Shown here one piece after another: positions 56,668 to 58,449 of a DNA stretch of 64,000 nucleotides (within the stretch, counting starts at the first letter, position 1; the number at the start of each line of letters is the position of its first letter). The stretch lies in NCBI RefSeq assembly GCF_003790525.1, contig NZ_CP033635.1. One strand, written 5' to 3'. The notes below the pieces were generated by a model. It ran no database searches. It had not been told where the DNA came from and saw only the letters and a program-made list of their open reading frames with translations. The stretch comes from Escherichia coli. Its GTDB lineage: Bacteria; Pseudomonadota; Gammaproteobacteria; Enterobacterales; Enterobacteriaceae. Both the position numbers and the translations under genes were made by a program.

Positions 56668-58449
56668 TTATCTCCTGTAGTGAATCTCATCGTGTAGTCT
56701 GGGGGTAACAATTCGTAAATTATCAATATCGTATACGCTGCCGCCATATTCAATTGCAACACGATGATGTATCTGGAATTTTTTAACTATTTCTTTAGGG
56801 CCATAATGCCAACCGTCAATAGGTGCTTTTGCGGTTAATCCTTGTTTTATACGTGTTTGGTTACCACTTGAAAACTGCGCTATCAACTCCGGATCCTGAC
56901 TCACCTCCAGCCACAGCGCCTCGCGAAACTCATCAAAGGTTTTAAACTCCCGTCCGCGCAATTTATCAGCAATATGTGCCGGGATTGGTGCGCCGTTGCC
57001 GTTATTGGATACCGACATATCCAGCCAGCGAGTTCCTGGTGAAAGCGGGACGCCGCGCCCTGTTACAACACCAGGCAGCTTTCGCGGATCCTCCTTCAGG
57101 TAAACATAGATGGGCTTAATACCGGATCCCGCCGGAAAAACCAGAATATAATCGTTGAATTCTTTCGGATCAGGAACCGGGAATGGCGGCGTGCTATAGG
57201 TATCAGTGCCGTCCGGAATCGGCGTCACCAGAATGGTGGGCTGCTCCAGCGGCGGCCTGTCGTTACCGGTATGGCCCGGAACATTCCCATGTTCCGGATT
57301 TTCCGGCGTCCAGGTAATCAGGGGGCCATCGACATCGTGAGCGGGGGTAAATTCATAACGCTGCGTCTGCTCGTTCCACTGCATGTTCGCCACGCGGACG
57401 TTTTCATACGGCGTACCTTCACCCGTATGAACACCATACACCTGAGGCTTGCCGTGAATGTCAGTTCCCCAGAAAAAACGTACCCGGGTGGTGGCGGTAC
57501 TGCCTGCTAGTGCTTTCTGCTGCAGTTCTTCCTCATACCAGAACTCATCACGTCCGGGCACGCGAGCACTGCCCTCGCCCGCAGAGGGAATATACAAAGC
57601 AGATGCCAACGCACCGATGTAAGAGCCGCGGGTTGCACTGAGTATGCCACTGAGCGACCATTTTCCCCATATTTGAGCCGCCAATACGCTACCCGGAAAC
57701 AGTAGCATGGTTTGAGCTTCTGCGGGTTGCCCGACATCGTTAGCCTCGGGATGGTGGTATCCACAGCAGTCATCAACCACTGGCAGAGCAAAAATCGCTA
57801 CTTGCCCGAAGTTTTCAGCGGGTTCTTCTGCCGTTCCGGCATCTGTACATCCCTTCTCCTTCAGACAGGATTTGGCATAGACCGGTTTAACCGCTGGTGG
57901 AGAGAGTGGAAGGTTAACAACTGGTAGAGGCTCAGGGTTAAGATTACTGGCAGGTGGGTTTTTAGGTGGAATAAATAAGCTATTATGGCCAGCAGGAAAG
58001 GCCAACCAGTCAAATTCCGTATTGGCTATTAGATGTTTACATAATATGTAGTCATAATCGACAGTTACACATTCGGTAGGAAGATTATTGTCAGAAATGT
58101 TTACATGAATAGCAGTTAATGAAGCATTTCTTAGCTGAATATAATAATACCGTTCCCAGCGCCCGCTTTTATTTATACGATACAAATCGATTTCAATAAA
58201 TAACCGCTCATTCTGATTGATGGCATTAGACAGTAGCGGTGAGCTTTTATCAATGAGTTTGCAAAATTGTAGCCCCTGCAGATTAACGCCTTTACCAGTA
58301 CTGGTAATGGTGTTGGTGAGTGCAAAGGCAAAAATTTCATCTTCATGGCCAACCTGCCAGCGATTACCAACCGACGCATACGTCCCACAGCCTGAAGAAA
58401 TATCGCCCTGCTTCTCACCGATTATTCTCAGGTAAACAATATCGCCCAC
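56668..58449 (-). CDS. T6SS Hcp-ET effector: N-terminal Hcp domain, pyocin-S-like middle region, C-terminal colicin-E9-type HNH DNase
   Basis: 593-aa ORF (GTG start). N-term VYLRIIGEKQGD...GHEDEI...FCKLIDKSSPLL...LYRINKSGRWERYYYIQLRNA...TEFDW is Hcp-like; C-term GAPIPAHIADKLRGREFKTFDEFREALWLEVSQDPEL...FQIHHRVAIEYGGSVYDIDNLRIVTPRLHDEIH aligns with the colicin E9 DNase domain. Confidence 0.82.
   Translation of the reverse strand: MGDIVYLRIIGEKQGDISSGCGTYASVGNRWQVGHEDEIFAFALTNTITSTGKGVNLQGLQFCKLIDKSSPLLSNAINQNERLFIEIDLYRINKSGRWERYYYIQLRNASLTAIHVNISDNNLPTECVTVDYDYILCKHLIANTEFDWLAFPAGHNSLFIPPKNPPASNLNPEPLPVVNLPLSPPAVKPVYAKSCLKEKGCTDAGTAEEPAENFGQVAIFALPVVDDCCGYHHPEANDVGQPAEAQTMLLFPGSVLAAQIWGKWSLSGILSATRGSYIGALASALYIPSAGEGSARVPGRDEFWYEEELQQKALAGSTATTRVRFFWGTDIHGKPQVYGVHTGEGTPYENVRVANMQWNEQTQRYEFTPAHDVDGPLITWTPENPEHGNVPGHTGNDRPPLEQPTILVTPIPDGTDTYSTPPFPVPDPKEFNDYILVFPAGSGIKPIYVYLKEDPRKLPGVVTGRGVPLSPGTRWLDMSVSNNGNGAPIPAHIADKLRGREFKTFDEFREALWLEVSQDPELIAQFSSGNQTRIKQGLTAKAPIDGWHYGPKEIVKKFQIHHRVAIEYGGSVYDIDNLRIVTPRLHDEIHYRR

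Follow-up and report, generated by a model that had tools for sequence, protein, structure and literature searches.

The locus between aroP and pdhR in the window, a stretch of 64,000 nucleotides of Escherichia coli DNA (contig NZ_CP033635.1), raises the question of what is encoded by an open reading frame (ORF) that appears to join an Hcp carrier to a colicin-like nuclease, and of how such a product could reach its target. An initial annotation, made by a model from the letters alone, had proposed a three-part protein composed of Hcp, an S-pyocin-type middle region and an HNH DNase resembling that of colicin E9 (ColE9). In this study, the proposal was borne out by matches in Pfam, NCBIfam and the PDB, and a multidomain toxin was therefore recognisable from raw sequence by a model reader. 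The ORF is very likely usp, the gene of the 'uropathogenic-specific protein', also known as Hcp-ET3-4, on the island PAIusp; its product would be an Hcp-carried effector of the T6SS (type VI secretion system) type with an HNH DNase, and the product of imu1 would be its antidote. The reading as usp is correct and is already known, and the comparator was corrected to Hcp-ET3-4/usp from the Hcp-ET1 of the initial annotation.

Domain architecture of the usp product

In the ORF list, the usp frame opens with GTG and runs uninterrupted through 593 codons to its stop; it lies on the minus strand, which the initial annotation had left unstated. In E. coli SMS-3-5, RefSeq gives the same coordinates for WP_000502514.1 under the label 'tssD', and the 4.25-kb region around usp is 100% identical to that genome (NC_010498.1). 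The gene and the parts of its product are located as follows.

56668..58449, minus strand: usp (Usp, Hcp-ET3-4) coding sequence, 593 aa, GTG start, TAA stop (ORF list, RefSeq annotation, identity to UTI89)
58000..58449, minus strand: Hcp (TssD) domain, residues 1-150 (TIGR03344, Pfam T6SS_HCP, PDB Hcp 6a2v at 4e-15 from residue 3)
57865..57999, minus strand: Pro-rich linker, residues 151-195, 27% Pro (composition)
57526..57864, minus strand: region without a Pfam match, residues 196-308 (Pfam; VPA1263 model aligned from residue 206)
57100..57525, minus strand: Pyocin_S (PF06958), predicted inner-membrane translocation (IMT) domain, residues 309-450 (Pfam 4e-40, PDB 3mfb 6e-18)
56671..57099, minus strand: colicin/pyocin-type HNH DNase domain, residues 451-593 (PF21431 1e-41; ColE9, ColE7, pyocin S2 and AP41 DNases 1e-27 to 1e-31)
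56680..56769, minus strand: HNH motif, H561, H562, N577, H586 and H590 (ColE9 alignment)

The domain calls are far beyond chance. Pfam assigned T6SS_HCP to residues 28-139 (1e-12), Pyocin_S to residues 309-450 (4e-40) and Col-Pyo_DNase to residues 460-591 (1e-41), with PF06958 lying directly upstream of the DNase. The PDB search returned klebicin G at 6e-39, pyocin AP41 at 3e-31, the colicin E9 DNase at 1e-30 and the Pyocin_S-type structure 3mfb at 6e-18; the DNases of colicins E9, E2 and E7 ranged from 1e-30 to 1e-26, and the best Hcp reached 4e-15, with other Hcps weaker. At the N-terminus, where Hcp had been placed at residues 1-150, the NCBIfam model TIGR03344 aligned to residues 1-146 over model positions 1-160 of 167 and scored 122.6 bits, against a curated cutoff of 58.9. 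This Hcp domain shares 40% identity with the 159-aa Hcp encoded at the end of the T6SS cluster at aspV in UTI89 and 26% with the main 172-aa Hcp. The Pro-rich linker of the initial annotation was recovered at residues 151-195.

The middle of the protein had been described as an S-pyocin-like region of about 300 aa. Pyocin_S is indeed present, although the Pfam match covers 142 aa; since homology to the model of the Vibrio DNase effector VPA1263 begins at residue 206, one can defend a conserved middle of about 245 aa. From the same homology, residues 196-308 may belong to the IMT module as an N-terminal portion that is so far unannotated. Within these residues lie two Cys pairs, CLKEKGC and DDCC, and a stretch rich in Gly, Ala and Ser that is moderately hydrophobic. 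Residues 248-290 were examined as a possible transmembrane helix, and this was rejected, the maximum Kyte-Doolittle score over 19 residues being 1.1. On current evidence the Pyocin_S domain is an IMT domain and not a second toxin (PMC9040868), and in Usp it would act by analogy to that of pyocin G.

The C-terminal domain matched PF21431 over the full length of the model (positions 1-124 of 124, E 1e-41), and 30 solved DNase chains matched the product at E <= 5e-26. The homology to the ColE9 DNase that had been noticed in the last 110 residues or so holds, although the domain itself is longer, at about 135-140 aa, and the identity to the ColE9 DNase is 43% over 138 aa. In this alignment H561, H562, N577, H586 and H590 correspond to H102, H103, N118, H127 and H131 of E9, and R456 and D506 correspond to R5 and D51. 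All catalytic and metal-binding residues are intact; the Hcp and HNH matches are thus significant and no catalytic His or Asn is substituted, as the initial annotation had expected. Moreover, in the published 346-aa numbering, to which 247 is added to give the present one (H314/H315 to H561/H562, N330 to N577, H339 to H586), the H314A/H315A double mutant and H339A were without nuclease activity, and N330A (= N577) was made and was too insoluble for assay (PMC3685522).

Identity with usp and its published background

The gene is flanked by pdhR (53764-54528, minus strand) and aroP (58975-60348, plus strand), which places it as an insertion in the aroP-pdhR intergenic region. By composition, the G+C content is 0.40 for the island, 0.49 for usp and 0.33-0.39 for the imu genes, compared with 0.53 for aroP and 0.56 for pdhR. 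The product is identical at 583 of 593 positions (98%) to the UTI89 protein encoded at aroP-pdhR, and none of the ten substitutions is catalytic. UTI89_C0121 is the reference for usp (PMC3203889) and is listed as Hcp-ET3-4 in a T6SS review (PMC6730261). PAIusp has been described as a low-GC island of about 4 kb, always at aroP-pdhR, that carries usp and imu1-3 and in which PF05638 and PF06958 are combined with a colicin nuclease (PMC7142922). Every feature of usp and PAIusp that was tested was found here, namely the site, the 593-aa three-domain protein, the three imu genes and the lower G+C. The assignment to the Hcp-ET class in the initial annotation was right as to class, and the proper member is Hcp-ET3-4, which is usp, and not Hcp-ET1 (PMC6730261, PMC6099711, PMC3203889).

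In the present survey, usp was found in 1058 of 5426 complete E. coli genomes (about 19%). The gene has been a standard virulence marker of extraintestinal pathogenic E. coli (ExPEC) and uropathogenic E. coli since 2000 and is routine in PCR. Publications already cover the nuclease activity (2013), the classification as the T6SS effector Hcp-ET3-4 (2017), the promoter (2020) and what the middle domain probably does (2022).

Proposed mode of action

The architecture suggests a mode of action in several steps. The N-terminal Hcp domain would let Usp be built into, or be carried by, the Hcp tube of a T6SS, with the Pro-rich linker as the flexible part of the protein. A recent structural paper (2026) argues that a hexameric ring would have room for no more than one extended Hcp and that five ordinary Hcps complete it (PMC13323088), and the 40% identity between the Hcp domain of Usp and the 159-aa Hcp of UTI89 is consistent with a need for partner Hcps. 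T6SS-dependent delivery is reported for the Hcp-ET class, as far as reviews describe it (PMC6730261, PMC6099711), with secretion and killing through a T6SS reported for Hcp-ET3/ET4 by Ma et al. (2017) in the summary of PMC6730261, and we infer an Hcp-tube route for the usp allele of SMS-3-5 as well. Once delivered, Usp would depend on its Pyocin_S/IMT domain; in nuclease bacteriocins, passage of the nuclease through the inner membrane of the target requires this domain. PF06958 is required, together with FtsH and TonB1, for the import of pyocin G into the cytoplasm, and the same study noted that PF06958 co-occurs with T6SS_HCP and named Usp as a T6SS example (PMC9040868). An inner-membrane step mediated by this domain would thus be expected for Usp by analogy.

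Finally, the C-terminal HNH DNase of the colicin E9/E7 type would degrade DNA, and the product of imu1, translated directly downstream, would be a protein of the Im7/Im9 type that binds and blocks the DNase, so that the producer would be protected. In agreement with this scheme, Usp alone was lethal to E. coli and the co-expressed OrfUs relieved the toxicity; the Usp-OrfU1 complex was tight and free Usp degraded DNA (PMC3685522). Moreover, reviews of the work of Ma et al. (2017) state, in their accounts of it, that the Hcp-ET3 and Hcp-ET4 toxins are antibacterial and are neutralised by downstream immunity proteins (PMC6730261, PMC6099711).

Immunity genes and the downstream array

Downstream of 'tssD', RefSeq labels three genes of SMS-3-5 'bacteriocin immunity protein' and two short ORFs 'hypothetical protein'. 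These correspond to an array of immunity genes and orphan DNase tails, given here together with the stretch of usp that varies most between alleles.

56746..56898, minus strand: hypervariable stretch of usp, residues 518-568, about residues 63-109 of the ColE9 DNase (four-allele alignment)
56381..56665, minus strand: imu1 (orfU1), gene for the cognate immunity protein (94 aa), starting 2 nt past the usp stop (Pfam Colicin_Pyocin 8e-30, PDB matches)
56327..56353, minus strand: hairpin after imu1 (fold -12.6 kcal/mol, z -2.4)
55974..56213, minus strand: orphan DNase tail 1, a dead copy of usp codons 517-593 (DNA alignment, all-frame translation, weak match to a DNase-effector model)
55683..55973, minus strand: imu2 (orfU2), intact immunity gene, 96 aa, 65% identity to imu1 (alignment, Pfam)
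55626-55658, minus strand: hairpin after imu2 (fold -17.7 kcal/mol, z -3.8)
55328..55516, minus strand: orphan DNase tail 2, a dead copy (DNA alignment, all-frame translation)
54984..55274, minus strand: imu3 (orfU3), intact immunity gene, 96 aa (RefSeq, alignment, Pfam)
54925-54961, minus strand: hairpin after imu3, followed by UUUUCG (fold -17.5 kcal/mol, z -1.8)

The role of imu1 as an immunity gene, which the initial annotation had also proposed, agrees with its Pfam match and with PDB matches to Im7 (1e-18), Im9 (1e-16) and the AP41 immunity protein (2.5e-20). The imu1 protein is identical to its UTI89 counterpart, WP_000471928.1. All three imu proteins match PF01320, share a mutual identity of 65% and keep the helix-III motif D-L-I-(Y/F)-Y-P. 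The three immunity genes are intact, and both orphan toxin tails are dead. In the first tail, HH is changed to YH at the first catalytic His and 1 bp is deleted after DIDNLR; in the second, HH is likewise changed to YH and a TAA stop takes the place of Leu between DIDN and RIVTPRLHDEIHYRR. The remainder of the tails, out of frame, still reads ...HLHDEIYYRR and RIVTPRLHDEIHYRR.

The downstream array is built of tandem units of about 695 bp, in each of which the last 77 or so DNase codons are combined with an immunity gene and with a spacer that contains a conserved hairpin. Homology of usp to the two downstream copies begins abruptly at TGGCTGGAGGTGAGTCAG (W-L-E-V-S-Q, residues 513-518). Tandem Repeats Finder, which is limited to periods of at most 500 bp, returned nothing because the unit of the array is longer, and the array was established by alignment instead. 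Hairpins of 10-13 bp follow each immunity gene at positions conserved in the repeat alignment. The hairpin after imu3 is probably the operon terminator, because it is the only one followed by a U-run; those after imu1 and imu2 could be processing or stabilising elements. In the proposed history of the array, imu2 and imu3 would be extra immunity genes left behind with the dead DNase tails by earlier tail-replacement events, and they probably protect against other usp alleles.

Allele polymorphism and displacement of tails

In an alignment of four alleles, almost all substitutions fall within residues 518-568. At the nucleotide level, the differences are concentrated in nt 1501-1782; nt 1501-1650 contain 37-44 of them, and other blocks of 150 nt contain 0-10. 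The immunity proteins also differ between alleles. Residues 518-568 align with the region through which colicin DNases bind their immunity proteins, as established in work on ColE9 and Im9.

The allele of strain SC418 has a main DNase tail and an immunity gene different from those of SMS-3-5. Directly downstream, at 5737-5973 of its locus, it carries an intact orphan tail with HH and the full HNH motif, which differs at 4 of 77 positions from the main tail of SMS-3-5 (window 56668-56901). This orphan tail is followed by the immunity gene WP_000471925.1, a RefSeq record separate from that of the SMS-3-5 imu1 protein. The SC418 orphan tail is direct evidence for displacement of a tail at the W-L-E-V-S breakpoint. 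Furthermore, the copy number of the array varies: strain 5506 of sequence type 131 (ST131) carries four immunity genes along with three orphan tails (locus 5285-7664), compared with three and two in SMS-3-5 and UTI89. The usp array shows the pattern of tail displacement that is known from the contact-dependent inhibition (CDI) and Rhs loci. Subtypes of PAIusp based on tail and immunity variation were defined in earlier usp papers, as mentioned in two later ones (PMC3685522, PMC8087846). A different kind of variation was seen in E. coli SCU-172, in which only nt 425-1782 of usp were matched; the product is annotated as an 'S-type pyocin domain-containing protein', and this allele is without the Hcp domain.

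Start codon and upstream region

The region upstream of usp contains the following features.

58451..58473, minus strand: leader with a Shine-Dalgarno sequence AAGGA (58469-58473), 9 nt, and a two-codon mini-ORF ATG AAA TAA (58451-58459) (sequence read)
58450..58974, minus strand: AT-rich aroP-usp intergenic region with the long usp leader (sequence read)

An in-frame TGA 9 nt upstream closes the usp frame, and the GTG is the first possible start after it. The Hcp homology starts at residues 1-3 both in the NCBIfam model and in a solved Hcp, and the GTG is kept in four alleles. Taken together, these three observations support the GTG start that the initial annotation had chosen with reserve. 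Its remark on a weak Shine-Dalgarno sequence also stands: no good one was seen on reading the sequence directly before the GTG. The stop of the mini-ORF lies 1 nt before the GTG, and AAGGA and the mini-ORF are both kept in four alleles. The mini-ORF could be a start-stop or re-initiation device that offsets the missing Shine-Dalgarno sequence at the GTG, or it could be a product of chance in AT-rich DNA. Translation of usp may depend on this two-codon leader by start-stop coupling.

Further upstream, the -10 hexamer TGGTAT of P3, which was published as a divergent aroP promoter, was located at 58831-58836 on the minus strand, about 375 nt before the usp start. TyrR-box-like sites occur at 58751-58768 and 58887-58904, pattern matches that by themselves are not above chance; scans for consensus promoters, terminators and TyrR boxes likewise gave nothing above the shuffled expectation. 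Control of usp by P3, TyrR and H-NS has been shown experimentally (PMC7142922).

T6SS status of SMS-3-5

The main difficulty for the reading of usp as a T6SS-type effector gene lies in the host, and several further points in the literature weigh in the same direction. No T6SS genes were found at the aspV, metV, pheU and pheV sites of SMS-3-5 or on its 130-kb plasmid pSMS35_130, nor were there any in the 64-kb window. The aspV site, which holds a full cluster of 13 T6SS genes in UTI89, is empty in SMS-3-5; metV carries only a five-gene sugar island, pheU only an integrase remnant, and the pheV island consists of iha, sit, iuc and debris of insertion sequences (IS). Beside the empty aspV site, at 255-281 kb of the SMS-3-5 chromosome, lies a second flagellar cluster (flhA/flhB, fliP-fliR, fliE-fliJ, flgA-flgI, flgM/flgN), which looks like the Flag-2 lateral flagellar locus of E. 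coli.

The sheath gene tssC was searched for at the DNA level, in megablast and blastn, with a chimeric query in which a usp anchor was joined to three types of tssC, taken from the cluster of UTI89 and the two clusters of strain 042. On the SMS-3-5 chromosome no tssC-like DNA was found by either program, the anchor being the single place matched. Some 20 genomes with an identical usp allele gave the same result, with the anchor only and no tssC match. Among the 5426 genomes, 5057 matched some part of the query, at a median of two places per genome, and in the control 2293 genomes gave blastn matches, of about 73% identity, to annotated tssC genes of other types. Nothing usable on the T6SS status of SMS-3-5 was found in the literature. 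Of the features of the Hcp-ET class, the N-terminal Hcp and the C-terminal toxin with an adjacent immunity gene were therefore found in SMS-3-5, and a T6SS apparatus in the same genome was not. As judged from these searches, SMS-3-5 is very probably without a T6SS sheath; therefore, the strain probably produces Usp without being able to fire it itself.

The remaining points come from published work. The IMT step was demonstrated for pyocin G only and for no T6SS effector (PMC9040868). Other papers treat Usp as a genotoxin of mammalian cells (PMC3917654, PMC7142922), and in one study Imu3 protects by binding DNA and not by binding the toxin (PMC3917654). The SMS-3-5 lineage is also not the only one concerned. 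In human isolates of ST131, which also carries usp, tssM is mostly broken by ISEc12 (PMC12282107). Intact usp persists in lineages that are T6SS-less or T6SS-defective, and a stranded effector in SMS-3-5 bears on whether Usp acts only through a T6SS or also as a host genotoxin.

Alternative explanations

Two alternatives concern the nature of the product itself. Historically, usp was annotated as encoding a 346-aa protein (PMC3685522), and the true product might be this protein, with the upstream Hcp-like part left untranslated. The original Usp of the 2000-2013 literature, 346 aa long, begins at codon 248, an ATG at 57706-57708 on the minus strand; this correspondence follows from the mapping of H314/H315, N330 and H339 to H561/H562, N577 and H586, and from 346 + 247 = 593. 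The 346-aa form was expressed and was active as a nuclease (PMC3685522), and the GTG lacks an adjacent Shine-Dalgarno sequence. However, M248 is equally without one, none being present in the 25 nt upstream, CGGGCAACCCGCAGAAGCTCAAACC, and it is the GTG that is retained in four alleles and that is abutted by a canonical Shine-Dalgarno sequence with the two-codon mini-ORF. The 247 open codons before M248 encode a full-length Hcp from residue 1, at twice the curated cutoff, and later literature uses the 593-aa three-domain protein (PMC7142922). A product that begins at codon 248 is scarcely credible, and it was rejected on the in-frame Hcp homology from codon 1. Usp was also, reportedly in the original proposal of Parret and De Mot, regarded as a diffusible bacteriocin like the colicins and pyocins, set free by lysis and imported by way of an outer-membrane receptor. 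The homology of its C-terminal 285 residues, which comprise the IMT domain and the DNase, and of the immunity genes to colicins E2/E7/E9, the S-pyocins and klebicin G would fit this idea. Nevertheless, Hcp occupies the N-terminus in place of a receptor-binding or Tol/Ton-box translocation region, and Pfam and PDB searches returned no colicin or pyocin receptor or translocation domain in the product. In addition, there is no lysis gene, the ORFs downstream of usp all being immunity genes or dead DNase tails; no LexA box (CTGT-N8-ACAG) occurs anywhere in the window, and the usp promoter is instead under TyrR and H-NS control (PMC7142922). This alternative is highly improbable, and a soluble colicin was rejected on the missing LexA box and lysis gene together with the Hcp N-terminus.

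Two other alternatives concern what Usp does in cells of the SMS-3-5 type. One is that usp is a disarmed weapon, silent or only self-toxic where no T6SS exists, and that selection keeps the three-gene immunity array, as protection against usp+ neighbours, together with a toxin-immunity pair that is hard to lose. The absence of a tssC match in SMS-3-5 and some 20 genomes with the identical allele, when detection across types succeeded in 2293 others, speaks for it, as do the lack of a T6SS at the usual insertion sites and on the large plasmid and the contrast of two dead tails with three intact immunity genes. Likewise, ST131 keeps usp with four immunity genes despite the tssM that is mostly broken by IS in its human isolates (PMC12282107). 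On the other hand, usp is fully intact with all its catalytic residues; the genomes with the identical allele may be a young clone, in which case an intact gene says little either way; and since the tssC search was based on DNA, a very divergent apparatus or a T6SS acting in trans is possible. Disarmament is a tentative but serious possibility, and it would complement the account of Usp as an Hcp-carried nuclease rather than replace it. The other is that Usp is mainly a genotoxin of the mammalian host and a urovirulence factor, with the Hcp domain serving delivery into host cells or some other role. Genotoxicity to mammalian cells, the association of usp with pyelonephritis, prostatitis and bacteraemia and its induction by urea and at 37 C (PMC3917654, PMC7142922) favour this view, with which the retention of usp in T6SS-defective ExPEC lineages would be compatible (PMC12282107). 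Against it, the IMT domain, the Im-type immunity genes and the polymorphism at the stretch aligned with immunity binding are those of an interbacterial nuclease weapon; a delivery route into host cells is not known; and usp also occurs in environmental, animal and commensal strains, SMS-3-5 included, and in S. bongori (PMC7142922). A mainly host-directed role is unlikely, and the host and interbacterial roles are not mutually exclusive. Finally, intact usp in the lineage of SMS-3-5, where no T6SS is detectable, and in ST131, in whose human isolates tssM is mostly broken, might reflect a T6SS-independent export route or role, such as release as a genotoxin or bacteriocin, in place of a stranded weapon, which we regard as very unlikely. 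An Hcp-carried effector of T6SS type, with an HNH DNase neutralised by the product of imu1, is the reading that we retain for Usp.

Comparison with known systems

The closest relative is Usp of UTI89, which shares with usp of SMS-3-5 the insertion site, the length of 593 aa, the three domains, the first immunity protein and the layout of three immunity genes with two truncated DNase ORFs. The hosts differ: in SMS-3-5, an environmental strain of phylogroup F, no T6SS sheath gene is detectable, and UTI89 carries a complete T6SS cluster at aspV. Within the Hcp-ET class, Hcp-ET1 of E. coli that makes Shiga toxin (STEC O104 / STEC004) resembles Usp in joining Hcp to a C-terminal DNase with a downstream immunity gene, and T6SS-dependent antibacterial activity has been reported for it (PMC6730261). 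In reviews, Hcp-ET1 forms the 'HNH-DNase' clan, apart from the 'Pyocin S3' and 'Colicin-DNase' clans, and by this published description it is set apart from Usp.

Outside that class, colicins E9 and E7 and pyocins S2 and AP41 have in common with Usp the HNH residues, the immunity proteins of the Im9/Im7 type (PF01320) and the IMT domain directly upstream of the DNase. Unlike the E-colicins and S-pyocins, Usp has no receptor-binding or Tol/Ton domain, no lysis gene and no SOS box; its N-terminus is Hcp, and its gene is chromosomal and not on a Col plasmid. Usp is thus a member of the family of colicin/pyocin HNH DNases and not a bacteriocin proper. A similar relationship was found with VPA1263 of Vibrio parahaemolyticus (NF047924), to whose model positions 373-711 residues 206-590 of Usp align at E 1e-62, and this alignment points to a cassette common to both proteins, formed by the pre-IMT region, the IMT domain and the DNase. 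The N-terminal loading module differs, being Hcp in Usp, and Usp scores 212 bits with the VPA1263 model, far below the cutoff of 900. The N-terminus of VPA1263 is a MIX-type domain.

The array as a whole is most readily compared with the CDI (cdiA-CT/cdiI) and Rhs arrays. Like these, usp combines a conserved body with a swappable tail and an immunity gene, carries displaced tails downstream and has a sharp breakpoint, which in usp is W-L-E-V-S. In contrast to CDI and Rhs, the swapped unit of usp is only about 77 codons long, consisting of the variable stretch and the HNH motif, and all of its tails are variants of one DNase and not unrelated toxins.

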